14,869 nt of DNA from a virus (IMGVR_UViG_3300043119_000443); one strand, 5' to 3'; shown: positions 742 through 14,350, counted from the first letter of the stretch. Numbers and translations: made by a program. Notes: generated by a model not told the origin, from the letters alone.

Positions 742-757
742 TGCGATTGTCATGCCA
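742..757 (-). promoter_or_regulatory. sigma54-type promoter TGGCATGACAATCGCA
   Basis: GG-N10-GC, 35 nt upstream of the helicase ATG. Confidence 0.6.
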
Positions 758-810
758 CGCCGGGCGGTCCGGATCAACCGGAAAATTATTACCGTGAAAC
801 GTCGCGCGCG

Positions 811-850
811 GTAAGGATAATGGCGGGTGGTCGATCGTTAAGGATAATGG
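811..850. repeat. Degenerate TTAAGGTTAA-type pair (GTAAGGATAA-N17-TTAAGGATAA)
   Basis: Direct repeat TAAGGATAATGGC x2 with 27-bp period, upstream of the 742-757 motif. Confidence 0.5.
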
Positions 851-1145
851 CCGGGCGGCGGATCGGGCGGACGCGGGGGCTTCAGCGGGTTACCCCTCCA
901 CCATTATCCGCGCCCGTTCTCCCGCCGTCATCCTTTCGCCCTTGCATGACGCTAGCCGGGCGTCGGGCTTCTCTTCGCGGCGATCACTTTCCGCTAGGCG
1001 TTTGCATCGCCACGTCTCTATAAAATCCTTCGGCTCTTTCGTCGCCGTTTCCTTGTGAACCAGAAAAACCCGGACCAGAAACTTCGGCCCTTGCGTCCAT
1101 CGGTCAGCCAGCTTCCCATTGCAATCCTTACGCCAGTTAGAGAAC

Positions 1146-1367
1146 GCGCCCGGTGCGGTTTAGGTCGCCGGGCGCGACCGTCTGATGGCTACCGCTGCCA
1201 AAATTTGAACCGTGCTGAATTGATCCGTTCCTAACCACGCTCAAGCCGCAGGGGCGAGCATGACGGGAGGGCAGACTTTTCGGACTCGCGTCCTAATCCA
1301 GCTTTGCAGTCTGTTACCAGTTCGAGCCCGCGCCGTTCACGCGCGGTTAGAGTTCCCTCCCTTGAGC
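1146..1367 (-). ncRNA. Candidate structured RNA (multi-stem domain plus H-type pseudoknot)
   Basis: Nested stems GCTCAAG/CTTGAGC, GGAGGG/CCCTCC, CCGCGC/GCGCGG, CAGACT/AGTCTG, GGAC-GCGA-GTCC; pseudoknot at 1179-1148; no convincing CDS. Confidence 0.35.
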
Positions 1368-1370
1368 AAC

Positions 1371-2120
1371 TTAATACACAAGTCCGAGTCGTTTTTGCAG
1401 ATACTTCGCGACCGCCTTGCGGACGCGTGCAATGTCCGCGCCCTTGCGGTAGGCGACGAAACTGATCTGCGTATCTGTCCAGCCGCCGGATCGCAGCGCG
1501 TTCATGATCAGCGTGCCGTGCATGTATCCCTCGCGGATGTGTTCGAGCAAGTGGCCGGTGTCGCCGTCGTGCGTGGTCATGCCTTCGCCCCGGAACGGGC
1601 CTTGCTGCGGAAGCGTCTCACGTTGCGCCATGCAGATGAAACAGTCGCCCAGTTCCGGCTTGGGAAGCTCGACGCCGTCCGGGAGCGTCGCCTTAACGAA
1701 GTCGCGAATCTGCTTCTTGAGCAACTTGGCCGCGACGCCGTCGCGCTGCGCTTGCGCGCGTGCGTCAGGATCATCCCAAGCGTCCGGGAGGATCATGCCA
1801 TCGGTGAAAGGAATCGCGTCCACGTGCTCCGGACGCTTGCCGACGAACCACTGGCCTTTGTTCGAGTAGATGTAGAAAGCGCCGAGGCCGAACGCGCCGA
1901 GGGAGATGTTGAGTCTGTCCTTAGTCGTGACGCTTTTCCAGCCGCCGGTGTCCAGCTTGACCCGTCCGTCCGGGAGCTGCACAGCGATGTCCGTTGTGTG
2001 CAGGCGGATGACGTTCTCGCCGTCGGCGCGCGTGTAGCGGAAAGTATTGTTCGCGATCTTGCGGGGCTTCCCGGCGATGTCCGGGACGCGCCTGAAACTG
2101 TCAGCCATAGAAATTCGCAT
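1371..2120 (-). CDS. Phage hypothetical protein, 249 aa, with possible Zn-binding C-terminal motif
   Basis: ATG 2120 after leader AGAGAGACACCG; motifs IRLHTTDIA...GGWKSVTTKDRLN and GDCFIC...HLLEH. Confidence 0.85.
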   Translation of the reverse strand: MRISMADSFRRVPDIAGKPRKIANNTFRYTRADGENVIRLHTTDIAVQLPDGRVKLDTGGWKSVTTKDRLNISLGAFGLGAFYIYSNKGQWFVGKRPEHVDAIPFTDGMILPDAWDDPDARAQAQRDGVAAKLLKKQIRDFVKATLPDGVELPKPELGDCFICMAQRETLPQQGPFRGEGMTTHDGDTGHLLEHIREGYMHGTLIMNALRSGGWTDTQISFVAYRKGADIARVRKAVAKYLQKRLGLVY

Positions 2121-2171
2121 CGGTGTCTCTCTGGTTTGTGTGGCGGGCCTTATGCCCGCCACGTCTAACAA

Positions 2172-2187
2172 TGCAAGCGCCGTGCCG
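2172..2187 (-). promoter_or_regulatory. sigma54-type promoter CGGCACGGCGCTTGCA
   Basis: Near-consensus, directly after the upstream TGA; followed by a 9-bp hairpin (2140-2162) and the leader. Confidence 0.75.
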
Positions 2188-2628
2188 TCAGTCCGCCCGC
2201 GTTTGGGAGAACGCGCCGACCACGCCGTTGGCCGTCAGGTGCTCGACGAACGCCAGCGCGCCGATCTCTTTGATGTCCATCGATTGCCCGCGATACTGGC
2301 CGGGGCCGTGAAAATACCAGTCGCTCGCCGTGTGGACGCCTTTCTTGACGTATCCAGCCCGGTCGCCCATGTCGCGCCCGGCTGTCAGTGCCTTGGCGAT
2401 CCGCAGGGCCTTCATCAGTTCGGGGTTCTGCTTGGCAGGGATGATGACCCAAGCAAAGCCGCAATACATCGGCTCGATTGCGTGCTCGCCGCCGCAGGCG
2501 TTCGCCGCTCTCGCCCATGCTTCATCGCCGCGCGCCTTCACTTCGGCGCGGTAGGCGGTGATAGCCTTGTCCATCGCAGCGGTTGCCGCCGCGTGTGCGT
2601 TGTTGATCAGTTCCACATAGTTGCGCAT
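2188..2628 (-). CDS. Phage hypothetical protein, 146 aa (CGFAWV...QSMDIKE motif)
   Basis: ATG 2628 after the same AGAGAGACACCG leader as 2120. Confidence 0.85.
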   Translation of the reverse strand: MRNYVELINNAHAAATAAMDKAITAYRAEVKARGDEAWARAANACGGEHAIEPMYCGFAWVIIPAKQNPELMKALRIAKALTAGRDMGDRAGYVKKGVHTASDWYFHGPGQYRGQSMDIKEIGALAFVEHLTANGVVGAFSQTRAD

Positions 2629-2672
2629 CGGTGTCTCTCTTTGTTGCAGTAGGGAAGCCATGGGGGATGTAT

Positions 2673-2688
2673 TGCATCCCCCATGCCA
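2673..2688 (-). promoter_or_regulatory. sigma54-type promoter TGGCATGGGGGATGCA inside an 11-bp inverted repeat
   Basis: GG-N10-GC; IR CATGGGGGATG-N5-CATCCCCCATG. Confidence 0.65.
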
Positions 2689-2693
2689 CGTGT

Positions 2694-2960
2694 CTACAGA
2701 AAAAAGCCTTCGCTGATCTCGACCGTCACGCCGGTCCGTTCAAGGATCGCCGCCGCAAGGTTTTCGCAGTGCTTGCGCGCCTTCTCTTTCCCTTTGGCGT
2801 CGCCGTTCTTGTACTGAAAATACTGCTCGCGTCCGAACGCCTCCCTGATCTTCGCGTATGCGTCCTTGCGCTCTTGCGAGCGGAGGGGGTACGTGCCGAT
2901 GGAAAGGTGACAGGTGAAATGCGACATTGAATGATCGCCGCCGAAAAACGTCTTAGTCAT
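2694..2960 (-). CDS. Hypothetical protein, 88 aa
   Basis: ATG 2960 with SD GGAG; ORF track frame. Confidence 0.75.
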   Translation of the reverse strand: MTKTFFGGDHSMSHFTCHLSIGTYPLRSQERKDAYAKIREAFGREQYFQYKNGDAKGKEKARKHCENLAAAILERTGVTVEISEGFFL

Positions 2961-3011
2961 AGTTCTCTCCGTGTCCATTACGGGACGGTCGTGCCGCCCC
3001 ATAACGAACAA

Positions 3012-3027
3012 TGCAAGCCCCATGCCA
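3012..3027 (-). promoter_or_regulatory. sigma54-type promoter TGGCATGGGGCTTGCA
   Basis: Near-consensus, intergenic, upstream of ATG 2960. Confidence 0.75.
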
Positions 3028-3051
3028 CGTGCCCGAGGCCCGTGTCCTTAA

Positions 3052-3096
3052 CCTTACCACCGATTGCCCGTTAGCCTTACCACCGATTGCCCGTTA
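3052..3096. repeat. Tandem 22-bp repeat CCTTACCACCGATTGCCCGTTA x2, followed by TTAA half-sites and TTAACCAT
   Basis: Copies at 3052-3073 and 3075-3096 (period 23). Confidence 0.85.
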
Positions 3097-3109
3097 ATGA
3101 TTAACGGCG

Positions 3110-3490
3110 TTAACCATAAATCCATTCTTTCGGTCGTCGCTCCGCGAACGGGGTCATCGAATGCACGATGGCCGTGTTGCTGGCGCGCGGTTCGATCATG
3201 ACACAATGACCGCCGCGAATTGTCAGCCCGCCGCCCTTCTCATAGTTGCGCGAGACTTCCAGATAATCCTCGAACGATGGCCCGAAACGGAATCGGATCG
3301 TCGCGTGTTCGAGAATGGGCCGCGCAGGATCGTCGCCATAGCCGACGATTGTGTTCCGCGTCAATTCATCCGCGACGCCAAGCTGCTCGTCCAGACGGTC
3401 GCGCAGGCTCTTTTCGTTGCGCTCCATCGACTCGATGTGCGTCTGCCACTTCTTAGGCAAACGCTCGAACCCGTCCGGCCTGATCATCAT
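3110..3490 (-). CDS. Hypothetical protein, 126 aa
   Basis: ATGA overlap with the upstream stop at 3490-3487. Confidence 0.75.
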   Translation of the reverse strand: MMIRPDGFERLPKKWQTHIESMERNEKSLRDRLDEQLGVADELTRNTIVGYGDDPARPILEHATIRFRFGPSFEDYLEVSRNYEKGGGLTIRGGHCVMIEPRASNTAIVHSMTPFAERRPKEWIYG

Positions 3491-3891
3491 GATCTGATCC
3501 AATACGTGACGCCGTCAAAATCGACCGACGTATAATCTTGCTGCAACTCTTCCGCCGCCTGTTTCCAGTCGATGCACGTCTGCGGCCATGACGCATTGCT
3601 GTCAATCGCGCCGATGTCATCGGCGAATTCACGCGCCCAGCGTTCGAAGTGAGAGTCGCGTATCAGCGCCTCGCCATGATGCCAGTCGGCGCAACCTTCG
3701 GCTTCTTCCGCCAGCGCCAGAAGCGCCGTCAGCTCTTCCTGCTCTTCCGTCATATCGACGCCGTTAACCATGAAACCTTCTTCGGTTTCTTCGCCGCCGT
3801 CCAGCTCTTCCTGTAGCTGCTCGATCTTTTCGATCACGTCGCGGCTGTCGATGATGTCGTCGCCGTTCGAGATGTTGATTCTGCGGGCCAT
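3487..3891 (-). CDS. Highly acidic protein, ArdA/Ocr-like DNA-mimic (antirestriction) candidate, 134 aa
   Basis: 35 D+E versus 9 K+R by manual count; C-terminal CIDWKQAAEELQQDY resembles the ArdA Y(I/F)DYE.Y.RDL motif. CDS solid, function tentative. Confidence 0.6.
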   Translation of the reverse strand: MARRINISNGDDIIDSRDVIEKIEQLQEELDGGEETEEGFMVNGVDMTEEQEELTALLALAEEAEGCADWHHGEALIRDSHFERWAREFADDIGAIDSNASWPQTCIDWKQAAEELQQDYTSVDFDGVTYWIRS

Positions 3892-3924
3892 TCTGAAACT
3901 CTCCGGTTGATGTAGTCCAATCAA

Positions 3925-3940
3925 TGCAAGCGCCGTGCCT
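3925..3940 (-). promoter_or_regulatory. sigma54-type promoter AGGCACGGCGCTTGCA
   Basis: Shares 17 identical bp with the 2172 site; overlaps the upstream TAG. Confidence 0.75.
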
Positions 3941-4175
3941 ACAGGTGCGTGCGCAGGTCCAGCGTCATGTTCTGCAACGTCCGGATGGCGAGGTGAAAGC
4001 CATCCTCCAGACCTTTGCAGTACGTCTTAGCCTCAAGCGCCAGCGCCGCCCGTGCCGCCGCCTTGTCCACGTCCGGGCGGTTGTCGGCGCTCAGCGATTT
4101 GACCGGCTGATCGTTAACCGCGATGACCGCGTAGTCCGGTGTCGGAAACAGTACAGTGATCTTCTGGTTACCCAT
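3939..4175 (-). CDS. Hypothetical protein, 78 aa
   Basis: SD AGGAGG, ATG one base after the upstream TAA. Confidence 0.8.
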   Translation of the reverse strand: MGNQKITVLFPTPDYAVIAVNDQPVKSLSADNRPDVDKAAARAALALEAKTYCKGLEDGFHLAIRTLQNMTLDLRTHL

Positions 4176-4176
4176 G

Positions 4177-4716
4177 TTAGCCTCCTAGTTCCGCAATGGC
4201 GCGGTCCTTTTCCTGATTGTATGGGTAGAGCAATTCCGATGCCAAGTCTCGCGCGCATTCGGCGATGTAGTCCTCACAATTGCTCTCGACGCCGCCGAGG
4301 TATTGCGTTTCATGCGTGCCGTCCAGCGTCACACCGATGACCACGTATTGCCATTCATCATCACACCAGCCGCGCAGAAATTCATAGTCGCGGCGGACCG
4401 CTTCCTTGCGGATGTCGCGGGCCGTGGGCGTGCGTCCCAGACGTTTCGCCAGCTTGGCCTTGTGCTCTTCGCACAGGCCCCATCCGTCGCGCTTGGCGAT
4501 GGTCATCGTCTCGAACCAGTTATACAGGCGCTCGTAATGGCGTTCGCAAGAAAGACGCCAGTATCCACGCGGTTCGGTCGTCGTCTCGCGTCGCTGCCAG
4601 TCGCCGACAACGCCGTGACCTTCAGCGCGCTCCCATGGCGTGTCGCCGCAATCGTCGCGCTCGATTGAAACGGTGAAGGTCGCGCCTTCATGTTCGAATT
4701 TGTCGCCGTCGTACAT
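4177..4716 (-). CDS. Phage hypothetical protein, 179 aa
   Basis: Leader CAACCGAAGAGTTTCAGAATG; acidic/aromatic, PWERAEGHG and DYEFLRGWCDDEWQY motifs. Confidence 0.85.
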   Translation of the reverse strand: MYDGDKFEHEGATFTVSIERDDCGDTPWERAEGHGVVGDWQRRETTTEPRGYWRLSCERHYERLYNWFETMTIAKRDGWGLCEEHKAKLAKRLGRTPTARDIRKEAVRRDYEFLRGWCDDEWQYVVIGVTLDGTHETQYLGGVESNCEDYIAECARDLASELLYPYNQEKDRAIAELGG

Positions 4717-4749
4717 TCTGAAACTCTTCGGTTGCTCTAGTTCGAATGA

Positions 4750-4765
4750 TGCAATCGCTATGCCA
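4750..4765 (-). promoter_or_regulatory. sigma54-type promoter TGGCATAGCGATTGCA
   Basis: Near-consensus, 33 nt upstream of ATG 4716. Confidence 0.75.
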
Positions 4766-4902
4766 TGCCGGCTAGTCTAGGTAAGTGTGCGCTGGCGTAC
4801 TCTGTTACAAATAGCGACCGCGACCTACTTCGATCTGATTCCTGATCTCGCGCCAGCCGTCGAATCTCTCGACGATCTCGCGGCCATGCGTGATATGGCG
4901 TA

Positions 4903-5085
4903 CTAGGTCGAAGGCGGGGCGACAAACCCATGTCGCTCCGCTATCGCCGCCAGCCAGTTGATCGTGGCCGGTAGCGTCGCCTGTATGATAGCGTCGCGCA
5001 GGATCGCCGACGCCGGGTGCAGGTGGCCGTCGATCTCGACCCAACGCGCCAGCGCGTTCGCCAGTGCTTGCGTGTCCCTGTCCAT
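4903..5085 (-). CDS. Hypothetical protein, 60 aa (possible -1 frame extension to 4805)
   Basis: ATG immediately follows the upstream TAG. Confidence 0.6.
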   Translation of the reverse strand: MDRDTQALANALARWVEIDGHLHPASAILRDAIIQATLPATINWLAAIAERHGFVAPPST

Positions 5086-5280
5086 CTATTCGATCTCGAT
5101 TGTAAACTGGGGGCCGGGCGTGTCGTGCTTGTGATGCGCGTAATGCCAGCCCTTCACGAACCAGCGCGCCGACTGATCATCGGGGAACGTGTGCGAAGGG
5201 GGCGATATGTGCAGCGACCGCGACGGGGGCGCGAACATGACTCTTCCGTCGCTCAGGCGCGTGAGGTGATACGTGATCAT
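5086..5280 (-). CDS. Hypothetical protein, 64 aa
   Basis: ATGA coupling at 5280-5277. Confidence 0.7.
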   Translation of the reverse strand: MITYHLTRLSDGRVMFAPPSRSLHISPPSHTFPDDQSARWFVKGWHYAHHKHDTPGPQFTIEIE

Positions 5281-5474
5281 GCGCGCAGCTCGTACGCCAG
5301 CGCCCGGATATTGCGGACGCGTTCCTCGACCACTAGGTCCGACTCGTCAAGGATCACGCCATACAGCGCGCCGTCGTCCATTGCGCCCAACAGGCGCGCG
5401 TGTGCCGCCCATTTTTCTTTGCAGCGCCCGGTGTAGGTCATGCCGTCACGGTTGACGTAGCTGATTCGGTACAC
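5277..5474 (-). CDS. Hypothetical protein, 65 aa
   Basis: GTG 5474 with SD GGAG. Confidence 0.7.
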   Translation of the reverse strand: MYRISYVNRDGMTYTGRCKEKWAAHARLLGAMDDGALYGVILDESDLVVEERVRNIRALAYELRA

Positions 5475-5568
5475 TTGTGTCTCCGTACAGGTTGCTCTCC
5501 CCTGCCACAAGCAAAGCACATGCCATGAAAATGGCCGCAGTGATTAACAGCGAGAGTGTCTGTTTCAT
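5446..5568 (-). CDS. Possible 40-aa hydrophobic peptide (MKQTLSLLITAAIFMACALLVAG...)
   Basis: Signal/TM-like N-terminus, fills the gap after the 5574 stop; no clear SD. Confidence 0.35.
   Translation of the reverse strand: MKQTLSLLITAAIFMACALLVAGESNLYGDTSVPNQLRQP
5510..5525 (-). promoter_or_regulatory. sigma54-type promoter TGGCATGTGCTTTGCT
   Basis: Near-consensus, 35 nt upstream of GTG 5474. Confidence 0.65.
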
Positions 5569-5573
5569 TAGGG

Positions 5574-5780
5574 TTACCGGGGCTCGATCTCGAATTCCAT
5601 CCGGTGCTTGGCGCGTCCCTTGTTGAGACTTTCGCACGTCAGGTCAGCATCGCCGTCGTCGCGCTTGTAAACCTTAGCGCGGTCCCGGAATTGCGTAAAC
5701 GCTTCCTGTCCCTGCTTGCCGGTGTAGTACAGGACGCGGCCCGACTTGATGTCGGTGCCGCGCAAAATACTGTTAGCCAC
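5574..5780 (-). CDS. Hypothetical protein, 68 aa
   Basis: GTG 3 nt after the upstream TAG. Confidence 0.7.
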   Translation of the reverse strand: MANSILRGTDIKSGRVLYYTGKQGQEAFTQFRDRAKVYKRDDGDADLTCESLNKGRAKHRMEFEIEPR

Positions 5781-5783
5781 GTT

Positions 5784-6191
5784 CTAGTCCCTTTCGATCT
5801 TCTTCACTTCCACGGTGAACCCGGCGATCATCAGCTCGCGCCGGACGTTCTGCGCCGTCGATTCGTCATCCGTCTGGACAATGCACTGTGACACAAGTTT
5901 GCCGTCGCGCAATCCCTCGACCATGTCCTTTGCATCTTTCAGGCCGTAGTTCGCGCCCCAGTGGCGGATTGCCTTGATGCCGTCGATCAGCCGCGCGCCG
6001 TCGTGGTTCGTGATGATGACGCGATACAGCACAGCCGCGCCATACACTTCATTGGCAAGCTCTTCGGCCCATTTCTGTAGACCGTTCTGGATCATGACCG
6101 CCAGCAGAGGGTCCGCCTCGCCGATGGCCGGTTGCAGCATCTTGCGCTCGCGGATCATGCGGCGGATGAAGTCGTCGCGTGTCAAAAGCAT
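5784..6191 (-). CDS. Ribosomal protein bL12 (L7/L12) C-terminal-domain-like protein
   Basis: YRVII...LIDGIKAIR..YGLKDAKDMVE...AQNVRRELMIAGFTVEVK parallels bL12 FDVIL...VAVIKAVR..GLGLKEAKDLVE...AEALKKALEEAGAEVEVK; start ATG 6191 or TTG 6200. Confidence 0.75.
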   Translation of the reverse strand: MLLTRDDFIRRMIRERKMLQPAIGEADPLLAVMIQNGLQKWAEELANEVYGAAVLYRVIITNHDGARLIDGIKAIRHWGANYGLKDAKDMVEGLRDGKLVSQCIVQTDDESTAQNVRRELMIAGFTVEVKKIERD

Positions 6192-6196
6192 CTGGT

Positions 6197-6430
6197 TCAA
6201 TCCATTACGTCAAAGGTTGCATCGTCCGGCAGGCCGTGGATCGTGGCGACTTCGCTCACGGTCACGCCGTCCGGTTCGTCGCCGTCGCTCTCGATGTTGA
6301 GCGTGGCGAATGTGGGCTTCGCGTGCGTGCCGACGTACGCCAGCGCCTTGCTCAGCGCCTCGCCTTCCGACTCCGCTTTGATGTAGAGCGTGGCCCAGAC
6401 GGGCACGTCAACAGAGTATTCCAGTGTCAC
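6197..6430 (-). CDS. Acidic hypothetical protein, 77 aa
   Basis: GTGA coupling, SD GGGAG. Confidence 0.75.
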   Translation of the reverse strand: MTLEYSVDVPVWATLYIKAESEGEALSKALAYVGTHAKPTFATLNIESDGDEPDGVTVSEVATIHGLPDDATFDVMD

Positions 6431-6651
6431 GATGCGACTCCCATCAGTTGATCGATTGATCCGACGATATACTGCCGACGGTCCGCGTCATAGACCGATC
6501 CGCCCGTCTCGCGAACGCCGCGAACAAACGCCGCGAAGGCATTGCCGTCGCCCGCCGTGTTCTCGAACCGCGCCACAAGTTGACCGTCCACGCTCACGAT
6601 GACCGGGCCGGTGATGTGATTCGAACTTTGCCGCATGAAGTCGTAACGCAT
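6427..6651 (-). CDS. Hypothetical protein, 74 aa
   Basis: Leader AGAGAGACACCTATG. Confidence 0.8.
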   Translation of the reverse strand: MRYDFMRQSSNHITGPVIVSVDGQLVARFENTAGDGNAFAAFVRGVRETGGSVYDADRRQYIVGSIDQLMGVAS

Positions 6652-6690
6652 AGGTGTCTCTCTCTGTTTTCCCGCCCGTGTCGGGCGTGC

Positions 6691-6933
6691 TCAGTGCCTT
6701 GCGGGATTCATGCCAACGCGCCGGTCGCGCTGCTCAGCGCTTTCCATCTGGTAAACCGTGCCGACGCGATACACGTCTTTCCCGATATCGCACGCCTGCC
6801 ATCCCCCAAAGTTGGCTTGGCCGATGCCGCGCGAAAACATATTGCCGGGCAGGCCGACCGTGCCGTCAGGAAGCCGTCGCACAGTGCCGACGTACCCGCG
6901 CCAGTTCATCGGGTGGACGCCTTGCGGGGTCAC
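6691..6933 (-). CDS. Hypothetical protein, 80 aa
   Basis: GTGA coupling to the upstream gene. Confidence 0.7.
   Translation of the reverse strand: MTPQGVHPMNWRGYVGTVRRLPDGTVGLPGNMFSRGIGQANFGGWQACDIGKDVYRVGTVYQMESAEQRDRRVGMNPARH
6700..6715 (-). promoter_or_regulatory. Weaker sigma54-type promoter TGGCATGAATCCCGCA
   Basis: GG-N10-GC at the same relative position as the 2172 and 2673 sites. Confidence 0.45.
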
Positions 6934-7172
6934 GTGTGGCGCTCCAGCTTGTAACGCTCTTTCGAGACGGAACCGTCCGCCGTGCGCTTCTCGATGATGA
7001 TGATGTCCCGGTCCGCGCCCAGTTGGCGACGCTCGCGCGTGTAGCTGATCAGGTCAGGCAACGGGCCGATGATGCCGGGCAGGGCGTTGTCGAATTCCTG
7101 CTCTTGACCGTATGACGCGATCACAGCGAACGGGCCAGCGGGATACAGTTGCCGGTGGAGTGTGCAGCGCAT
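6930..7172 (-). CDS. Hypothetical protein, 80 aa
   Basis: Leader CAACCGGAGATTTTCAAAATG. Confidence 0.8.
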   Translation of the reverse strand: MRCTLHRQLYPAGPFAVIASYGQEQEFDNALPGIIGPLPDLISYTRERRQLGADRDIIIIEKRTADGSVSKERYKLERHT

Positions 7173-7192
7173 TTTGAAAATCTCCGGTTGCT

Positions 7193-7871: not shown

Positions 7872-8662
7872 ATCAGTCCCTCAATGCCTTCGTCTGTCTC
7901 TTCATCATCGTATGCAATAGGCGTGCCAGCAGCGAAAGGTATGACCGGCTCGTATTCCATCCCGCCTGCATACGCTAGGGGCCGACATGACACAAGCTGA
8001 AAATTGATTGCGTCCCAGAATGGGAGGCCCTTCCCATTGCGGCCCTGCACTGGGATATACACGTCGGGCTTATTGAGTGTCCGGGGCCATGGCGTCGTTT
8101 CATGCCGCCGGGTGATCGCTATGCCTTTCTGTGACAGCCGGACGCCGGTCAGCAGATAGTCCAGCACATTGTTCGCAGCGAATAGCGCGCGGGTCGCCTC
8201 ACGTTCGGCGCGGGCATGATAGGACGATATCAGAATGTGGGGCGTCTCCCCATACGGTTGCAGTCTCATAATGGGAAGATGATGCCAGTAGATAAAAGTC
8301 GGTTGGCCGTGCTTGGCCTTAAAGCCGAGGGTCCGGTTAATGCGCGCCTGATAGTCCAGAGGCCGCAACGCGTCCACGTCTTTACCAAAGTTGCCACGTC
8401 GCGGGTCGCGCTTGGTAAATACTGACTTGGCCGTCGTCTTGGGGCCACGGGCTAGGTACTCTTTCAGGAAGTCGCCGCGCAAAGCCGGGGGCATCCCTCC
8501 CTCGACCATGCGCTCGCCGGACAAACCGGACAACGTCCAGCCGTCCCATTGCCCGTTAGGGGTGACAGCCCCCATCGTCTCGTCCACGCGGAATTTCGTG
8601 GGCCGTTGCTTGGCGCGGCTAACTATGGCCCGGTGCCGGGCTAGGGCGGTTGCGTCTATCAT
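7868..8662 (-). CDS. Hypothetical protein, 264 aa, basic N-half with acidic tail
   Basis: Long ORF coupled to the downstream gene; no family recognised. Confidence 0.75.
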   Translation of the reverse strand: MIDATALARHRAIVSRAKQRPTKFRVDETMGAVTPNGQWDGWTLSGLSGERMVEGGMPPALRGDFLKEYLARGPKTTAKSVFTKRDPRRGNFGKDVDALRPLDYQARINRTLGFKAKHGQPTFIYWHHLPIMRLQPYGETPHILISSYHARAEREATRALFAANNVLDYLLTGVRLSQKGIAITRRHETTPWPRTLNKPDVYIPVQGRNGKGLPFWDAINFQLVSCRPLAYAGGMEYEPVIPFAAGTPIAYDDEETDEGIEGLI

Positions 8663-8673
8663 CTTTCCGTACT

Positions 8674-8689
8674 AGCACGATCCGGGCCA
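8674..8689 (-). promoter_or_regulatory. sigma54-type promoter TGGCCCGGATCGTGCT (near-leaderless)
   Basis: GG-N10-GC; ATG falls at about +2. Confidence 0.45.
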
Positions 8690-8699
8690 CGGGGACAAG

Positions 8700-9612
8700 A
8701 GGGTAGGGGGCCGTCACCCTCACAACTGGGGGCGGTCACCCCGTCTTAACGAGTTGGGCGGCGTTTAGGTTAATTGGCGTGGAGCACTAACTTACCGTAT
8801 CCCCCCTAATCGCTCCGTGGCGGCGGGGCTCCCGATTAGGGTTACTGTCCCCGTATAAGTTAGGGTATCCATCCCCTAATTAGCATATTAGGGTTTATAA
8901 TAGGGTGCCAATCCCCTAATCACGATAATGTGATATCCTAATATTTTCTCAGCACTTTAAGATGAGGAGAAGGTTAATAGGTAGTGATTGTCAAAAAAGC
9001 CCATAAATAAAGGATAAAAAGCCCCTTTTTCAACCTCGCATTGGCCGTGGTAGGGTGGAAGGTTAATGGCGCGTCGGCTGTTAAGCTTAAGGCCGAGGGG
9101 GACTTGCTCTAATTAGGCTTAACGTCGTATAACTTAAAATTAACCCTAACAGCCCGTATAACCTCATTTATAATAGCTATAATTAACCTTAACGGGCTAT
9201 AAATTAAGGTTAATTTAGCCTATTAGGGTTAATTTTCGACGAGGCCACGGGGGACTTCAAGGCTGTTAAGGTTAACAGCTCTTGTTTTTCATGGTAACCT
9301 TAACACATATTCGGCGATTAGCACAAAATTAACCTTAACAGGCTATTAAGGTTAATGGCGTTAAGGTTAATGCAGGCCGAGGGGGACTTCAAGGCCACAG
9401 GGGACTTCAAGGTTAACAGGCCAGAGGGGACTTCAAGGTTAATTAGTAGTAAATCCGAGGCGGCGGCTGTCATTAATGGGCCGTTAACCTTAACGCGTTA
9501 ACCTTAACAGGGCGGTAAGGTTAACAGGCTGTTAAGGTTAATGGCGTGTTAAGGTTAATGGGCATTAACTATAAACGGCTGTTAAGGTTAACCGGCGGCG
9601 GCGCGTTAACCA
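8700..9612. repeat. Non-coding AT-rich array of TTAA(GG/CC)TTAA units with GGGGACTTCAAGG and ATCCCCTAAT repeats
   Basis: About 900 bp with no ORF; chains such as GGTTAA-caggctg-TTAAGGTTAA-tggcgtg-TTAAGGTTAA (9519-9558). Confidence 0.9.
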
Positions 9613-9625
9613 TGGTCACGGCAGG

Positions 9626-9757
9626 TTAGACATCCCCCTTGTCGTGGGGGATGTCGAAGATGACCGGGGAGTAATTCCGCCAGACCATGCCGAGGTGATG
9701 CGGGCAGCGGATCAGGCAGATAAAGAGGGCGTAGGACTTCCAAAGGATGCGGTGCAT
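9626..9757 (-). CDS. Small hypothetical protein, 43 aa
   Basis: SD ACGGAG, own promoter upstream. Confidence 0.6.
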   Translation of the reverse strand: MHRILWKSYALFICLIRCPHHLGMVWRNYSPVIFDIPHDKGDV

Positions 9758-9783
9758 GGTCGATCTCCGTTTCTGATGACGCA

Positions 9784-9830
9784 TGTATGCCATAGACCCG
9801 GACGTTATGCAATAGCTATTTTGCATTATT
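9784..9830 (-). promoter_or_regulatory. sigma70-type promoter (TTGCAT 9812-9807), truncated copy of the cassette left arm
   Basis: TATGCAATAGCTATTTTGCATTATT identical to 10756-10780. Confidence 0.6.
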
Positions 9831-9832
9831 CC

Positions 9833-9873
9833 AAAAAAAATTGCTCGCCCCGCGCATCATGGCGGGGCGAGCA
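9833..9873 (-). terminator. Rho-independent terminator
   Basis: 12-bp stem TGCTCGCCCCGC/GCGGGGCGAGCA followed by an A and T8 on the minus strand. Confidence 0.85.
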
Positions 9874-9900
9874 GTTTACCTGTAGACAACGGAGAGAAAC

Positions 9901-10140
9901 CTACAGGCTAGTAAGAAGCGCCACAATCCAGAATATCAGGCCCATGGGCGCGCATACGTACAGCCATGCCTTGCGCGCTGCTAGGCCTATCAGCCACCCT
10001 AGATCAGCGATCCAGCGGGGCAGGGCATGGTCTGGCGTCCAGCCGGTCCGCTCGCATTCGAAAGGCTTGGAAGGCGCTTGCGCGCCTTCCGTGTATACCC
10101 CTTCGACAATTGGCCGCTGGCGTGTTCCAAAGGCGCTCAA
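9901..10140 (-). CDS. Small membrane protein, 79 aa
   Basis: TTG start overlapping the upstream TGA, GGAGG 7 nt upstream; hydrophobic C-terminus. Confidence 0.65.
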   Translation of the reverse strand: MSAFGTRQRPIVEGVYTEGAQAPSKPFECERTGWTPDHALPRWIADLGWLIGLAARKAWLYVCAPMGLIFWIVALLTSL

Positions 10141-10370
10141 GTCAATCCCTCCACCCATTGCCACAGGTCAGGCTTGTTCATGCAAGATCGCTGCCCGCGA
10201 TCGTGGCGCACGTGGACGGAAGCGCCGACGGGATAGGCGCGAAGCACGTCCGCCGCTGCTTTGGCGTCGCTGCCGGTATACATGGCCGCGACAGGCTCGA
10301 TGGACATCGCCACGACTCCCCGGCTATCCGGGGAGGTGCAGCGGATTTGGTTCGCTGATACCGTGATCAT
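10137..10370 (-). CDS. Hypothetical protein, 77 aa
   Basis: SD AAGGAGG. Confidence 0.75.
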   Translation of the reverse strand: MITVSANQIRCTSPDSRGVVAMSIEPVAAMYTGSDAKAAADVLRAYPVGASVHVRHDRGQRSCMNKPDLWQWVEGLT

Positions 10371-10373
10371 GGT

Positions 10374-10640
10374 CTAGGCCTCCTTCAGAAAGTAATACAT
10401 TGCCAGAGTGCAGCCGAGTCGCGGCGCTTCCGGGCAGATAAGCGCAACCTGATGGGCGTGAGCAAAATAGTGCTCTTCCTCTTCGTCCATATGCGCGGGC
10501 GCTCCGGCGTCGATGCGAGCGATGAAGGCATCCGCTGCGGCGATATCTGCGTCAGACAGGCCTTCCGGGTCATCGTTGAAGAAATAGCAGGCCCAATGCG
10601 CGGGGGCGGTGGCGTCGATATTGATCAGGTCGCGGCTCAT
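10374..10640 (-). CDS. Acidic hypothetical protein, 88 aa (WACYFFNDDPEGLSDAD motif)
   Basis: SD ACGGAG, ATG 10640. Confidence 0.8.
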   Translation of the reverse strand: MSRDLINIDATAPAHWACYFFNDDPEGLSDADIAAADAFIARIDAGAPAHMDEEEEHYFAHAHQVALICPEAPRLGCTLAMYYFLKEA

Positions 10641-10664
10641 GATTCTGTCTCCGTTTTTTTTTGG

Positions 10665-10727
10665 TCGAGAGAGGGAAACCGCCGGGGCTTCGGGGGGTAG
10701 GAAGCTTGTCCCGTTTCCCTCTCTCGA
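10665..10727. repeat. 15-bp perfect inverted repeat forming a 5'-UTR hairpin
   Basis: TCGAGAGAGGGAAAC (10665-10679) / GTTTCCCTCTCTCGA (10713-10727). Confidence 0.85.
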
Positions 10728-10777
10728 TACGCAAGACATAGCACGACTGGCGGAGTATGCAATAGCTATTTTGCATT

Positions 10778-10793
10778 ATTACAAATTTGTAAT
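10778..10793. promoter_or_regulatory. Palindromic operator ATTACAAATTTGTAAT (copy 1)
   Basis: Perfect 16-bp palindrome between divergent -35 boxes. Confidence 0.8.
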
Positions 10794-10808
10794 GTTGCAT
10801 TTTTCTTC

Positions 10809-10837
10809 TTGACAGGCTCGGATTTTTGTGATATAAT
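10809..10837 (+). promoter_or_regulatory. Consensus sigma70 promoter TTGACA-N17-TATAAT, antisense to the genes
   Basis: Exact consensus. Confidence 0.85.
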
Positions 10838-10911
10838 GGATTGACGACCTATTTTTGCCCGTTAACGAGTTGTTAACCTTAATAGGCTGTTAAGGTTAAC
10901 GCCGCGCCACG

Positions 10912-10947
10912 AAAAATTAACCATGCCAGTGCGAAACTGGCATGGTT
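10912..10947 (-). terminator. Terminator hairpin AACCATGCCAG/CTGGCATGGTT + AATTTTT
   Basis: Directly after the stop at 10955. Confidence 0.7.
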
Positions 10948-10953
10948 CTTGCA
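10938..10953 (+). promoter_or_regulatory. sigma54-type motif TGGCATGGTTCTTGCA
   Basis: Consensus match in the hairpin arm. Confidence 0.55.
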
Positions 10954-10954
10954 T

Positions 10955-11113
10955 TCATAGCAGTCGGCGTTTTCGCTTGTCCTTAACCCAGCCTCGCATG
11001 GGTTGCGGCGCTTTTACAGCTTTCATTAACCCTGCCAATGGGTTGCGCTTTCGTCGGCGTTTTACGAACAATTTCACGGAAGTTTGGGGAGGCTTTCGCC
11101 TCCCCTCACTCAC
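10955..11113 (-). CDS. Possible very basic 52-aa protein (..KRRRKRNPLAG..KRKRRLL)
   Basis: GTG overlapping the upstream TAG; stop abuts the cassette A terminator. Confidence 0.45.
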   Translation of the reverse strand: MSEGRRKPPQTSVKLFVKRRRKRNPLAGLMKAVKAPQPMRGWVKDKRKRRLL

Positions 11114-11379
11114 TAGGCCGTGATCGAATTCCCTTCGTGCTTGCCTGCCGCGATCTCTGCGGCGGTCTGGTCCGCCAGCGCCTTCAGGGCGTCCGCAGCG
11201 CCGACATAGTCGCGCGCCTTGAACTTCTTCCCAGTGAGCGCCGCAGCCGTGTCCATCATGGCTTTCGGGGTGTATGCACGGTTGACCTTCATCCCGGTTT
11301 TTGCGTAGAGGCGCAGCGCCGAGGCGATGGCGACACACTGGTAAACCGAGACTGCGGTAGAGCCTGAAAACATGGTCAT
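11113..11379 (-). CDS. Phage hypothetical protein, 88 aa (ALRLYAKTGMKVNRAYTP motif)
   Basis: SD ACGGAG, promoter from cassette B. Confidence 0.85.
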   Translation of the reverse strand: MTMFSGSTAVSVYQCVAIASALRLYAKTGMKVNRAYTPKAMMDTAAALTGKKFKARDYVGAADALKALADQTAAEIAAGKHEGNSITA

Positions 11380-11431
11380 TGGTCGTTCTCCGTTCGTTGT
11401 TGATGCACTAGAGATAGCACATCCATCGGCA

Positions 11432-11630
11432 TATGCAATAACTATTTTGCATTATTACAAATTTGTAATGTTGCATTTTTCCTATTGACCCGGTCCGGCT
11501 TTTATGGTATGATGGAATGACGACCTATTTTTTCGCGTTAACGACTTATTAACCTTAATGGCGTGTTAAGGTTAACGCCGCGAGGCTAAAAATTAACCGT
11601 GCCTCCCTTTCGGGTGGCACGGTTCTTGCA
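11432..11630. repeat. ~200-bp cassette, copy B
   Basis: Operator 11454-11469; TTGACC-17-TATGAT 11485-11513; TTAA cluster 11538-11576; hairpin 11595-11624; TGGCACGGTTCTTGCA 11615-11630. Confidence 0.92.
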
Positions 11631-11870
11631 TTACCCCTGCGGGTTCGGCTTGTACTCGCCGACCGGACCACTGTAGAGCAGTTGGAGCACTCCCGCGCCA
11701 TTGTGGCGCGTCAGGTACACGCTGCACATATCGACGCCGTTTGCCTCATACAGCCGCACCTCGACAGCGCCTTGCCATGACGCGGCGCGCGTCGTGAGGC
11801 CCGAGGATTTATGGCCGAGGCGGGAAGCTTCCGTGCGTCCGCCCTGAACCGTTCCGCGAAAGTGAGCCAT
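11631..11870 (-). CDS. Phage hypothetical protein, 79 aa (MAHFRGTVQG motif)
   Basis: SD ACGGAG; stop abuts cassette B. Confidence 0.85.
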   Translation of the reverse strand: MAHFRGTVQGGRTEASRLGHKSSGLTTRAASWQGAVEVRLYEANGVDMCSVYLTRHNGAGVLQLLYSGPVGEYKPNPQG

Positions 11871-11918
11871 TTTCTATTCTCCGTTTTCCGGGGGCGTTCA
11901 TCGCCTCCCATGCGTGTA

Positions 11919-11987
11919 GGTATCGCATATCCGGCCAATGCAGTCAACAGAATAATGCACACATTACAAATTTGTAATGTGTGCATT
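11919..11987 (-). promoter_or_regulatory. sigma70-type promoter TTGACT-17-GATACC with a 34-bp perfect palindromic operator (11954-11987)
   Basis: AATGCACACATTACAAATTTGTAATGTGTGCATT. Confidence 0.75.
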
Positions 11988-11997
11988 TTCCGCTTGA

Positions 11998-12258
11998 CTA
12001 ATAGTCGGCGATCTTGTCCGCCTCGCGTTCGAGAAAAATCATCTGCACAGGCGTCAAGCGGTGGTCGCCTTGGCCGCTTCCGTTGTCGTCCAGAATGCCC
12101 ATCATAAGCGCCACGGTGAGGCTAGACGAGTGTTTCCCGTTCGGGTCGGAGAAGCATACGAACCAGCGATTCCCGTCCTCCGGACCCATGTCCGTGCATT
12201 CGAAAATCACGAGCGAGTGACCCTTCGCGATCACTTTGTCATTGCGTCCCAGTTTCAT
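11998..12258 (-). CDS. Hypothetical protein, 86 aa
   Basis: SD GGAG, TAAT-ATG coupling. Confidence 0.8.
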   Translation of the reverse strand: MKLGRNDKVIAKGHSLVIFECTDMGPEDGNRWFVCFSDPNGKHSSSLTVALMMGILDDNGSGQGDHRLTPVQMIFLEREADKIADY

Positions 12259-12259
12259 A

Positions 12260-12358
12260 TTAACGGCTCCATTTTTTGTGGAAGCGAACCGCGCAAATGC
12301 GGTTGCTGAGTTCTTCCGAAGGGAAGAAGAAAAAGACGATTTTCAGAACCGTTTCCAT
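12260..12358 (-). CDS. Small protein, 32 aa (METVLKIVFFFFPSEELSNRICAVRFHKKWSR)
   Basis: SD ACGGAG and cassette C promoter; below the ORF-track cutoff. Confidence 0.6.
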   Translation of the reverse strand: METVLKIVFFFFPSEELSNRICAVRFHKKWSR

Positions 12359-12405
12359 TTGGTCGCTCCGTTGTTGATGACCCTTTATCGCATAGGTTGG
12401 CCGCA

Positions 12406-12614
12406 TATGCAATAGGATAATTGCATTATTACAAATTTGTAATGTTGCATTTTTCCTCTTGACCCAACCGGATTTATCTGGTAAAATGGATTGACGACCT
12501 ATTTTTCCGCGTTAATGAGTTGTTAACCTTAACAGAATGTGGCGCGCTGTTAAGGTTAACAAATCGAGGCGAAAAATTAACCATGCCAACCGCGGGGCTG
12601 GCATGGTTCTTGCT
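12406..12614. repeat. ~200-bp cassette, copy C
   Basis: Operator 12428-12443; TTGACC-17-TAAAAT 12459-12487; TTAA cluster 12512-12560 (N17 spacer); hairpin 12579-12608; TGGCATGGTTCTTGCT 12599-12614. Confidence 0.92.
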
Positions 12615-12928
12615 TAGGCGTCCACGGGCTCGGGATCGTCCGGCGATTCGAAGAATTCGCCAAGCTCAACAAATAGGACCGTGCAGCCCTGATCATATCT
12701 GATCATGTCGCCATAGTCCGAACGGCTTGAACGCTCGCCAGTGAGTCCAGCTTCGCGCCTAGCAGCCTTGGCGACACGCGCGCGACGCTTGCGCCATGCT
12801 TCGGGCGAATACTGATCGCCATCGCTCCGGCGATGTTCGCAGCGGATAATGCCGCGACGAACCCAGCAATAATTCGCCTCGCCTCCAAAGGTGTCAGTGA
12901 ATTCCCAGCGGTAAAGATGTTCGGCCAT
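12614..12928 (-). CDS. Phage hypothetical protein, 104 aa (EFTDTFGGEANYCWV motif)
   Basis: SD GAGGA, ATG 12928; stop abuts cassette C. Confidence 0.85.
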   Translation of the reverse strand: MAEHLYRWEFTDTFGGEANYCWVRRGIIRCEHRRSDGDQYSPEAWRKRRARVAKAARREAGLTGERSSRSDYGDMIRYDQGCTVLFVELGEFFESPDDPEPVDA

Positions 12929-12930
12929 TG

Positions 12931-13095
12931 TCAATCCTCAAAAAGCAATTCTGCGAATTCGTCGCGCGGCTGTTTGGACGCTTTCTCTTCGTCGCGAATC
13001 TCTTGACAGTATTTCTCGACGATTTTCAACTGACGAAGAATCTCGTCCATCGTCGGCTTTCGGCCATGAAGATAAAGGCTGTTTTCGGGGGCCAT
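12931..13095 (-). CDS. Small charged protein, 54 aa (MAPENSLYLHGRKPTMDEILRQLK...LLFED)
   Basis: TAATG coupling; fills the gap exactly. Confidence 0.6.
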   Translation of the reverse strand: MAPENSLYLHGRKPTMDEILRQLKIVEKYCQEIRDEEKASKQPRDEFAELLFED

Positions 13096-13277
13096 TAGAA
13101 GGTCACCACGACGGTCAGGACAGCGACGGCGACGAAGAGCGCCACGGCGATGAAAGCGAAGTGATCGCGCTTCACGACGGCTTTAGGAGCCGTTTCGAGC
13201 GTGATGGGCGTGCGGCGCTCAACTCCGGCCCATTCGGCGCGGATTTGTTCGTCTGTCTGGCGGTAGTTGATTTGCAT
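13095..13277 (-). CDS. Small protein with C-terminal transmembrane anchor, 60 aa
   Basis: SD ACGGAG; FAFIAVALFVAVAVLTVVVTF tail. Confidence 0.75.
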   Translation of the reverse strand: MQINYRQTDEQIRAEWAGVERRTPITLETAPKAVVKRDHFAFIAVALFVAVAVLTVVVTF

Positions 13278-13287
13278 TTGCGTGCTC

Positions 13288-13429
13288 CGTTGTTGATGCA
13301 CTAGAGATAGCACATCCATCGGCATATGCAATAGCCTTTTTTGCATTTTTCTGCGTTTCGAACATTACAAATTTGTAATGTAGAAAAGTGCATTATGCGC
13401 TTGCGTTTCTAGAATAGGTGTGGCATTGT
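13288..13429. promoter_or_regulatory. Divergent sigma70-type promoters (left TTGCAT 13331-13326; right TTGCGT-17-CATTGT 13401-13429) flanking a 20-bp palindromic operator (13362-13381)
   Basis: ACATTACAAATTTGTAATGT; 13288-13333 is identical to 11395-11440. Confidence 0.75.
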
Positions 13430-13456
13430 CTTTTTAACAGCAACGGAGAACTGCAA

Positions 13457-13699
13457 ATGACCTCGCTCTGGACCAAATATAACGACGCCACTCAGCCCGG
13501 CCCTTCGGCCACTAAGGAAGCGATTGCCGAGGTTGCCGCGGCGCTGAACTACGCGGGCAAGGAACCGCCGCTCTATGTCATGAAGCGCGCCCAACGCCTC
13601 GCCCAGATGAAGGGCCAGTCGATCCGGGAGTCAAATTTCCGCTACTGGTTCGATCAAGCGGTTAACAACTTAGCGGCCCAATTCGGGGTCGCTAAGTAA
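13457..13699 (+). CDS. Hypothetical helical protein, 80 aa, divergently transcribed
   Basis: SD ACGGAG, ATG 13457, followed by a terminator. Confidence 0.8.
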   Translation: MTSLWTKYNDATQPGPSATKEAIAEVAAALNYAGKEPPLYVMKRAQRLAQMKGQSIRESNFRYWFDQAVNNLAAQFGVAK

Positions 13700-13714
13700 G
13701 ACCCTGTTAAGGCT

Positions 13715-13741
13715 AAGCCCCCTCTTACTGAGGGGGCTTTT
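13715..13741 (+). terminator. Rho-independent terminator
   Basis: AAGCCCCCTC-TTACT-GAGGGGGCTT then TT. Confidence 0.75.
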
Positions 13742-13746
13742 GCTTA

Positions 13747-13791
13747 TGCAATTAGCGTGCCAACATGGGTGCCCATGCAAGGCCCATGCCA
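13747..13791 (-). promoter_or_regulatory. Two tandem sigma54-type promoters TGGCACGCTAATTGCA (13747-13762) and TGGCATGGGCCTTGCA (13776-13791)
   Basis: Both near-perfect consensus. Confidence 0.7.
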
Positions 13792-13799
13792 GAGGGCAC

Positions 13800-14350
13800 A
13801 TGGTATGGTTAATTTATTGTGCTGTTTTGTTAACCATACTTTCTTGGTTAATGCTGCATTAAAGTTAACAACAGGGGTGTATTTATTAACCATACTTTCT
13901 TGGTTAATTTTTTAGGGTTATTCATTAACCATACCAGAATTTACAGATTTTTAACCTTAACAGAATGTGTCTTTCTGTTAAGGTTAACCCACTGCTAAGC
14001 CCCCTCTATTTAAGCCCCCTATGTAGAGCATGGTTAATGCAAATTAACCTTACTATGTGCTACTGTATGCTAATCTCTTATTAACCTTAACAACATATGT
14101 ATGCTACTATGTATTAAGGTTAACATATGTATAATATTATTAATAATTAATAATAATTTAATTTTTTATTAATTTTATTGATTATTAACCTTAACAAGCT
14201 GTTAACCTTATCGGTTAGGGTTTTGTTAACCCTAACGGGGGTATGCCCCAATCTGGGTCAATTAACCTTACTACGCCACTCATTATACGCATGTGCCAGA
14301 CCCACCTTTTCGACCGGGGGTACTTATAATTAAGCCCCGCCTCTTATAAC
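13800..14350. repeat. Second AT-rich TTAA(GG/CC)TTAA array with a 50-nt pure-AT tract; candidate origin or genome terminus
   Basis: No G/C at 14130-14179; direct repeat TTAACCATACTTTCTTGGTTAAT x2; TAAGCCCC repeats. Confidence 0.85.

Follow-up and report, generated by a model that had tools for sequence, protein, structure and literature searches.

Results

Organization of the locus

The stretch of DNA analysed here (hereafter the window, 14,869 nucleotides) comprises bases 392-15260 of IMGVR_UViG_3300043119_000443, a 78,869-bp IMG/VR virus record with a terminal overlap, 59% G+C and an estimated completeness of 100%, and it carries dense arrays of TTAA-containing units that we read as predicted clustered binding sites of the CtrA type. 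The source is an uncultured siphophage of an alphaproteobacterium. Its genome encodes a tape-measure protein, a tail tube protein and a host-specificity tail protein of the gene transfer agent (GTA) type and, on the replication side, a family-A DNA polymerase, a primase-polymerase/helicase and a ribonucleotide reductase. The polymerase shares 37-38% identity with its counterparts in Brevundimonas Delta-like and Rhodobacter phages, full-length relatives of the tail protein come almost only from alphaproteobacterial phages, and by sequence comparison both the GTA-type tail protein and the BLAST matches of the arrays appear to point to phages of this class. A megablast search of phages and plasmids, with the whole window as query, returned zero matches.

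Codon-usage scoring places minus-strand genes from 13346 down to about 1371 (all coordinates are window coordinates unless stated otherwise). This run is broken at 8663-9625 by a gap that is free of open reading frames (ORFs) and without coding potential (gap 1). One small plus-strand gene (13457-13699) is followed by a terminator, and a second gap (gap 2) extends over about 13.75-14.45 kb. The TTAA units are confined to non-coding DNA, namely these two ORF-free gaps and three repeated cassettes. Further along lies a tRNA-Ile gene (14683-14759), the sole match of an Rfam search. Among the minus-strand genes, that at 5784-6200 encodes a 138-aa protein matching the C-terminal domain of ribosomal protein L7/L12 (E 1.7e-6), an unusual cargo for a phage early region.

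The TTAA units follow a spacing grammar

The exact decamer TTAACCTTAA/TTAAGGTTAA occurs 22 times in the window (9183-14194), against 0.01 expected, and the associated motifs are similarly in excess: TTAA-N7-TTAA (13 against 0.07), TTAA-N17-TTAA (12 against 0.13) and TTAACCAT (10 against 0.24). Over the whole 78.9-kb genome there are 23 decamers and 13 TTAA-N7-TTAA sites, of which 22 decamers and all 13 N7 sites lie between 9183 and 14205, the N7 sites inside 4.9 kb. A C extension of the CtrA type is present on one side of 11 of the 13 N7 sites. A first-pass annotation, made from the window alone, had described TTAA units in helical-phase spacing, many of them reading TTAA-N7-TTAAC, and these counts bear it out.

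Inside the clusters, start-to-start distances between TTAA tetramers peak at 6, 11, 17, 21 and 27, and the distances 10, 12, 20 and 22 are almost empty. Because the peaks stand beside near-empty neighbouring distances, with the local background included, we regard the rule of one or two turns as real. The earlier description of the spacers as N7 or N17 thus captures the two strongly enriched classes, but spacers of 4, 5, 11, 23 and 24 also occur between exact decamers; an N7 site that it cited at 10881-10895 exists, at the corrected coordinates 10879-10893. Oriented on TTAAGGTTAA, the extended consensus is TTAAyaggCTG-TTAAGGTTAA-Y; the opposite strand then shows a pair of TTAAC half-sites at a distance of 6 bp and, after N7, a third TTAA. 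The decamer itself is this pair, (TTAAC)C(TTAAC), and in tandem runs it is the junction of abutting 17-bp full sites, TTAA-N7-TTAACC. As TTAA partners lie one (N7) or two (N17) helical turns away, proteins bound to them would sit on one face of the DNA.

Besides 11 exact decamers and degenerate copies, the gap-1 array (9060-9613) contains four TTAA-N7-TTAA sites and, at 9515-9560, a 17-bp tandem run; TTAACCAT stands at 9606. The array is interspersed with a second repeat family, five copies of GGGGACTTCAAGG that interleave with the TTAA units between 9096 and 9440. In gap 2 (array at 13805-14271), TTAACCAT/ATGGTTAA half-sites form palindromic pairs, and the decamers occur as a pair at 13951/13978 (N17), a pair at 14081/14114 (N23) and a single copy at 14185, with degenerate copies to 14271. 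A third TTAA cluster lies outside the window at about 76,960-77,260, some 10 kb leftward, and contains two copies of GGGGACTTCAGAC (about 76,990-77,040) that belong with the second repeat family. A third repeat family, inverted and direct copies of CCCCTAAT/ATTAGGG, occupies 8800-8925, between a promoter-like site at 8689 and the TTAA arrays, and is kept in relatives.

Three related phages were compared, the window phage and two relatives (G002 and G003, about 75% identical); a further relative, L026, is referred to below. The gap-1 alignment has a mean column identity of 82%, with 71% of window positions identical in all three phages, and 69% of the TTAA tetramers are fully invariant as against 43% of all 4-mers. 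TTAA is thus preferentially conserved among the three phages. In gap 2, the units from about 13880 onward are kept in both relatives.

The same units occur in phages with CtrA-site clusters

A sensitive BLAST search of 50,697 phage records with gap 1 matched only phages of Caulobacter, Brevundimonas, Sphingobium and Erythrobacter, including phages in which Mascolo et al. described clusters of CtrA sites (PMC9437464). Identical GTTAACCTTAAC units are found in the terminal repeat of phiCbK and in the gap of Poludnitsa, a Delta-like phage. In phage Delta, the 81 bp preceding DELTA_120's start codon consist of decamer-N7-decamer-N7-decamer, and this stretch fits the description of the probe that phosphorylated CtrA (CtrA~P) shifted in an electrophoretic mobility shift assay (EMSA) (PMC9437464). 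In that work purified CtrA~P shifted the Delta probe, and the DELTA_120 promoter was repressed by CtrA in a ctrA(ts) comparison (PMC9437464). The effect shown for CtrA was repression in the Brevundimonas phage Delta and activation in phiCbK. Hosts offer a precedent for the arrangement in tightly packed, partly repressive multi-site CtrA promoters, with pilA sites 3 bp apart (PMC11264516). The CtrA reading of the motif that the first-pass annotation had put forward is accordingly supported by the comparison with phiCbK, the Brevundimonas Delta-like phages and the description of the Delta probe.

When IMG/VR was scanned for two decamers at N7 spacing, 31 further loci with arrays were recovered, with up to 27 decamers each. 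The spacers that separate consecutive decamers in these loci have peaks at 7 and 17, the pairs being as often direct as inverted; the search pattern has no bearing on 37 N17 cases and 13 inverted N7 cases. Since direct repeats cannot form hairpins, the spacing rule speaks for a protein that binds along one face of the helix, and we rejected a reading of the units as hairpins only, the direct pairs following the same rule. A gene shared by the arrays was sought by tblastn of all ORFs against the flanks of the 31 loci, and only sporadic sharing was found; the most widely shared, a 145-aa phrog_25535 protein, is present in 5 loci and absent from a close relative.

In two unrelated IMG/VR contigs, L009 and L022, a single TGTTAAGGTTAAC unit is found every 500-800 bp, once per small gene. 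It separates one gene's terminator from the sigma70/73-like promoter of the gene that follows, and in many cases a ATGGTTAAC partner stands at N17 rather than N7.

In chromosomes, a use of the decamer grammar by hosts was considered and rejected, the decamer showing no enrichment over a reversed control in 121 alphaproteobacterial genomes. Across 185,579 species genomes the direct N7 decamer pair does not exceed chance, with the exception of one Xanthobacter promoter. In this exception (L046 7895-7921 and L054 883-909) two decamers at N7 stand in the orthologous promoter of two species, about 20 bp upstream of a TPR-repeat protein's start codon, an uncommon instance of the phage-type grammar in a chromosome.

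As to a reader encoded by the phage itself, six-frame searches of the phage genome for an OmpR-type winged helix-turn-helix (HTH), ParB and a sigma54-activator ATPase found none of them, and Pfam and PHROGs searches of 20 window proteins returned zero DNA-binding families. The sole hint of DNA binding in the genome is a weak, sub-threshold match to an XRE-type HTH in a 300-aa protein (genome 16375-16470; about 15984-16079 in window coordinates, outside the window). A literature search for the decamer string returned unrelated papers only, and a paper on an XRE factor of phiCbK gives no TTAA motif.

Cassettes with antisense promoters and terminators

The three cassettes share one layout. In cassette A (10862-10924) the units read TTAA-N7-TTAACC / TTAA-N7-TTAA / GGTTAAC, then N17 and TTAACCAT, an arrangement common to all related cassettes; cassette B (11538-11600) is laid out in the same way with TTAACCGT as the distal half-site, and cassette C (12512-12584) reads TTAA-N7-TTAACC / TTAA-N17-TTAA / GGTTAAC, then N17 and TTAACCAT. 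Each has a plus-strand, near-consensus sigma70 promoter, TTGACA-17-TATAAT, at 10809-10837, 11485-11513 and 12459-12487 (12/12, 10/12 and 10/12 matches, respectively). These promoters point at the TTAA units, antisense to all neighbouring genes, and are kept in relatives.

Followed in the direction of the genes, a cassette begins with the terminator of the upstream gene, a spacer of about 15 bp and the units in the order GGTTAA / TTAA-N7(or N17)-TTAA / GGTTAA-N7-TTAA, and continues with the reversed sigma70 promoter, the perfect 16-bp palindrome ATTACAAATTTGTAAT, a TATGCAATAG element, the 5' leader and the gene. From its sequence, we read the TATGCAATAG element as a possible Caulobacter-type promoter, TTGCATA-N13-GCTATNTC. 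Relative to the antisense sigma70 promoter the units accordingly occupy +17 to +57; counted from the probable promoter of the leftward gene, which in cassette A lies at about 10728-10762, their position is about -134 to -172. Copies of the palindrome are found at 10778-10793, 11454-11469, 11963-11978, 12428-12443 and 13364-13379; it adjoins every cassette promoter and is also present in the divergent region before the sole plus-strand gene. Both relatives have it unchanged, and a phage repressor probably uses it as its operator. Between two terminators, a 160-nt non-coding stretch (10955-11112) contains two TTAACCC...ATGGGTTGCG hairpin-like repeats and may be a small RNA.

Each cassette had been credited in the first-pass annotation with a sigma54 motif downstream of its units (10938, 11615 and 12599). 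These three motifs are intrinsic terminator hairpins. The minus-strand terminator at 10919-10947 (-21.9 kcal/mol, then UUAAUUUUU) overlaps the supposed motif at 10938-10953; a minus-strand hairpin of -28.9 kcal/mol at 11595-11624, whose stem differs from that of cassette A by compensatory changes, overlaps the motif at 11615-11630; and a third on the same strand, found by terminator calling and folding at 12579-12608, overlaps that at 12599-12614. Across three phages, a hairpin of -20 to -38 kcal/mol followed by UUAAUUUUU is present in 10 of 10 cassettes, with stems that differ through compensatory changes, and a sigma54-like sequence is present in 5 of the 10 only. We identify these motifs as terminators because it is the structure rather than the sequence that is conserved, because the U-tract is on the gene strand, and because the motif is antisense to all genes.

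Sigma54-like sites and their relation to the arrays

A weighted scan for TGGCACG-N4-TTGCW (maximum score 16) found 16 sites at a score of at least 15, against 0.74 expected, and 5 at a score of 16, against 0.02 expected. Most of them fall between genes, 30-60 nt ahead of a start codon, and have the same direction as the genes: minus-strand sites span 757-8689, and plus-strand sites run from 14843 to 23866, past the end of the window. A set of sigma54-type -24/-12 promoters precedes most early genes. Judging by their sequences, and by those of the relative L026, which carries such sites before orthologous genes with GG and GC retained and the spacers altered, sigma54-like promoters are a real feature of the lineage. 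One conserved site, 14843 (14828-14858), is ambiguous, being readable as sigma54-like TGGCACG-N4-CTGCA or as TTGACG-N17-CATAAC, and the same ambiguity recurs at 52992 and 65856.

The sigma54 coordinates first listed (742, 3012, 8674, 10938, 11615, 12599, 13747 and 13776) all hold up as GG-N10-GC with scores of 14-16 out of 16, but they differ in context. A GG-N10-GC close to a gene start and co-directional with the gene is found at 757, 3027 and 8689 (sites 742-757, 3012-3027 and 8674-8689) and at about 12 others; the motifs at 10938, 11615 and 12599 are antisense, and those at 13762/13791 face a convergent gene. At 8674-8689, the minus-strand site TGGCCCGGATCGTGCT (score 14) heads a long leftward gene block; the relatives retain its GG and GC and have an altered spacer, and a proximal TTAA pair (TTAAC...GGTTAA, 8746-8773) 57-81 bp upstream of it is invariant in both relatives. 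Upstream of 742-757, at a distance of 55-95 bp, the cluster reported at 811-850 is indeed an N17 pair, although it consists of two degenerate direct copies, GTAAGGATAA-N17-TTAAGGATAA, with one true TTAA; a CTTAAC element stands at a similar distance from the corresponding site in L026. The cluster reported at 3048-3117, 21-90 bp upstream of 3012-3027, likewise contains copies (TTAACCTTAC, TTAGCCTTAC, TTAATGATTAAC and TTAACCAT), but they are degenerate and spaced by N13, neither N7 nor N17; a comparable cluster precedes the orthologous promoter in L026. The two tandem minus-strand sites at 13747-13791 (scores 16 and 15) face leftward into a terminator and the convergent plus-strand gene, and in both relatives this segment is replaced by unrelated sequence and the pair is absent, the neighbouring arrays being conserved.

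The proposal that TTAA clusters lie upstream of the sigma54 motifs thus holds for 757, 3027, 8689, 13762 and 13791, but fails for the cassettes and for the site at 77416, which points into the third cluster and so has it downstream. Its stronger form, in which the arrays act as upstream activating or blocking sequences that couple CtrA to sigma54, is largely contradicted. A decamer-like unit lies within 250 bp upstream of 5 of the 21 gene-directed sigma54-like sites, the other 16 having none, and the 31 other array loci (268.5 kb) contain 2 sigma54-like motifs, the chance rate, compared with 12 in the window and 5 and 3 in its two relatives. The only other array locus with such motifs is a 49.8-kb IMG/VR contig, L006 (two at a score of at least 15), which may be a second lineage combining arrays and sigma54-like motifs. 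The six frames of the complete phage genome contain no PF00158 sigma54-activator ATPase at E<=1, and the genome encodes neither an OmpR-type winged helix nor a sigma54.

Discussion

In this study, we have explored the TTAA arrays of an uncultured siphophage, and we consider it probable that they are clustered CtrA-type binding sites (TTAA-N7-TTAAC, with the half-site TTAACC[AT]). This is the best supported of the readings that we weighed, and it would make the feature a member of a kind reported in 2022. Several observations weigh against it. The published assay with the Delta probe included a cold-competitor control and no mutated-site control (PMC9437464). The central GG/CC of the decamer varies far less than it would have to under the published CtrA consensus, in several other phages there are many more decamers than N7 sites (L009 has 22 decamers and 3 N7 sites), single decamers have their partners at N17, a spacing not documented for CtrA, and in host chromosomes both the decamer and its N7 pair remain at background, as reported above. 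As the decamer is a phage speciality and is over-invariant for CtrA, a rival in which another factor reads it is conceivable.

According to this rival, which we hold to be clearly the less likely, the 13-16-bp element (C)TGTTAAGGTTAAC would itself be read by a factor other than CtrA, either a small phage protein of no known family or a SciP- or MucR-like host partner, and the CtrA-like TTAA-N7-TTAA sites would be a by-product of the packing of the units, a consequence to which we give the same low standing. The invariance of the central GG/CC and of the flanking TG...C speaks in its favour, as do the excess of decamers over N7 sites in several phages, the single decamers placed once per gene cassette, the lack of decamer enrichment in host chromosomes and the fact that most of the small window proteins have no known family. 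What argues for CtrA instead is that the identical unit and spacing rule recur in phage lineages that share no detectable gene near their arrays, that the cultured carriers are confined to alphaproteobacterial phages, and that purified CtrA~P alone shifted a Delta probe composed, by its description, of these units; in addition, neither the arrays nor the DNA next to them contain a recognisable gene for an HTH, winged-helix or ParB protein, the weak sub-threshold XRE match being outside the window. We think it improbable that the units act as nucleic-acid structure (hairpins in antisense RNAs of about 100 nt, or cruciforms) or as replication or segregation elements (iterons, or centromere-like sites of a phage origin in the gaps). 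It is true that the cassette pairs are all inverted (CC-N7/N17-GG) and lie between a strong promoter and a terminator, and that two other repeat families and an AT-rich stretch are present in the gaps as well, but across phages direct pairs, which cannot fold, are as common under the N7/N17 rule as inverted ones, the arms never vary and so give no covariation signal, the phage has no ParB (no PF02195 match), its GC skew is weak with no clear origin signal, and Rfam matched only the tRNA.

Least likely of all, to our mind, is that the arrays serve as upstream activating or blocking sequences of the sigma54 promoters, through which CtrA or a phage enhancer-binding protein would link the cell cycle to sigma54. 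The promoters themselves are genuine in this lineage, as their excess at a score of at least 15 indicates, and units or degenerate units do lie 20-100 bp upstream of 757, 3027 and 8689, with conservation in L026. Nevertheless, the cassette motifs are terminator hairpins with the motif in half of the cassettes, the 13747/13776 pair is absent in relatives despite conserved arrays, 16 of 21 sites have no unit nearby and one has its cluster downstream, and the other array loci are at chance level. Open-complex formation by sigma54 requires an AAA+ activator; the phage encodes none, and CtrA has no AAA+ domain either. We conclude that the arrays are not specific enhancers of sigma54 promoters. A modulating role of the units at 757, 3027 and 8689 is possible, given that TTAA-like units there are conserved in L026.

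Comparison with known systems places the arrays closest to the alphaproteobacterial phages termed LPEG, which carry dense TTAA and TTAA-N7-TTAA clusters in non-coding gaps (the gap of vB_BsubS-Delta, the terminal repeats of phiCbK-like phages; PMC9437464). The likeness extends to identical GTTAACCTTAAC units, to the 17-bp packing and to a DNA polymerase 37% identical to that of Delta, and three marks of that group, an N7 excess over chance, a skewed genome position and an intergenic location, are all found here. Unlike in those phages, the gap does not separate divergent gene blocks but lies upstream of a co-directional operon, further copies of the units occupy three terminator-promoter cassettes, where they lie downstream of antisense sigma70 promoters, and a set of sigma54-like promoters is present as well. 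With the multi-site CtrA promoters and origin of Caulobacter (the four sites of pilA, hemE Ps/Cori; PMC11264516) the arrays share the packing of CtrA sites within a few bp. At those promoters binding is cooperative, and the upstream sites repress and sharpen the sensitivity to the CtrA level (PMC11264516). The host sites are, however, few and degenerate (N6/N7, irregular spacing), and perfect decamer arrays are essentially absent from host chromosomes.

The position of some units 20-100 bp upstream of -24/-12 promoters recalls the upstream activating sequences of bacterial enhancer-binding proteins (bEBPs) such as NtrC and FlbD (ftr elements); here, however, no AAA+ activator is encoded, and the units do not track sigma54-like sites in this or in other phages. 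The TTAA motif is not known to serve as a bEBP site. Finally, the cassettes resemble moron-like early cassettes flanked by promoter and terminator, since this phage and the unrelated L009 and L022 share the order terminator, TTAA unit(s), promoter around each small early gene. In L009 and L022 a single decamer lies 30-90 bp upstream of a gene-directed sigma70/73-like promoter, whereas here an antisense sigma70 promoter intervenes.

Based on the CtrA reading, the most likely course of events would be that phosphorylated host CtrA, when abundant, occupies the arrays and that early transcription of the phage is thereby tuned to the cell-cycle state of the host, in line with what has been demonstrated in phage Delta (repression) and phiCbK (activation). 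At the cassette units, the most likely local effect of CtrA~P would be to block the antisense sigma70 promoter, in a manner resembling the repression at DELTA_120. A distal effect on the cassette gene promoter is also conceivable, in which case the early cassette genes would be transcribed in sense and antisense at a ratio that follows the host cell cycle. The two gaps could serve as larger CtrA-responsive hubs bordering the early cassette region. For this phage, both the occupancy by CtrA and the direction of the regulation are thus predictions.

It could further be proposed that CtrA-type arrays and sigma54-type promoters form one circuit in this lineage, in which CtrA~P would gate or insulate sigma54 transcription driven through a host activator (FlbD, TacA). 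The arrays do bracket the sigma54 block, with the 76,960-77,260 cluster on one side, gap 1 on the other and degenerate units upstream of 757, 3027 and 8689, but we consider such a circuit unlikely. If it were true, the phage would read two host developmental regulators at once. A literature search for phage sigma54 precedents found nothing relevant.

In conclusion, our results remove a false lead, the apparent cassette sigma54 motifs being terminators, and to this explanation they add the grammar of the units, with the motif statistics and conservation that go with it, and the match of these units to the description of a published EMSA probe, which is to say their presence in published CtrA-bound DNA. 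Compared with the published TTAA-N7-TTAA, the site grammar is sharper, with TTAAC half-sites in pairs 6 bp apart, partners one or two turns away and abutting 17-bp units. The strategy of clustered CtrA boxes appears to be widespread and to extend to uncultured phages, with the same arrays in at least 31 IMG/VR contigs, and, the grammar being essentially absent from host chromosomes, these may be high-avidity sites that evolved in phages.

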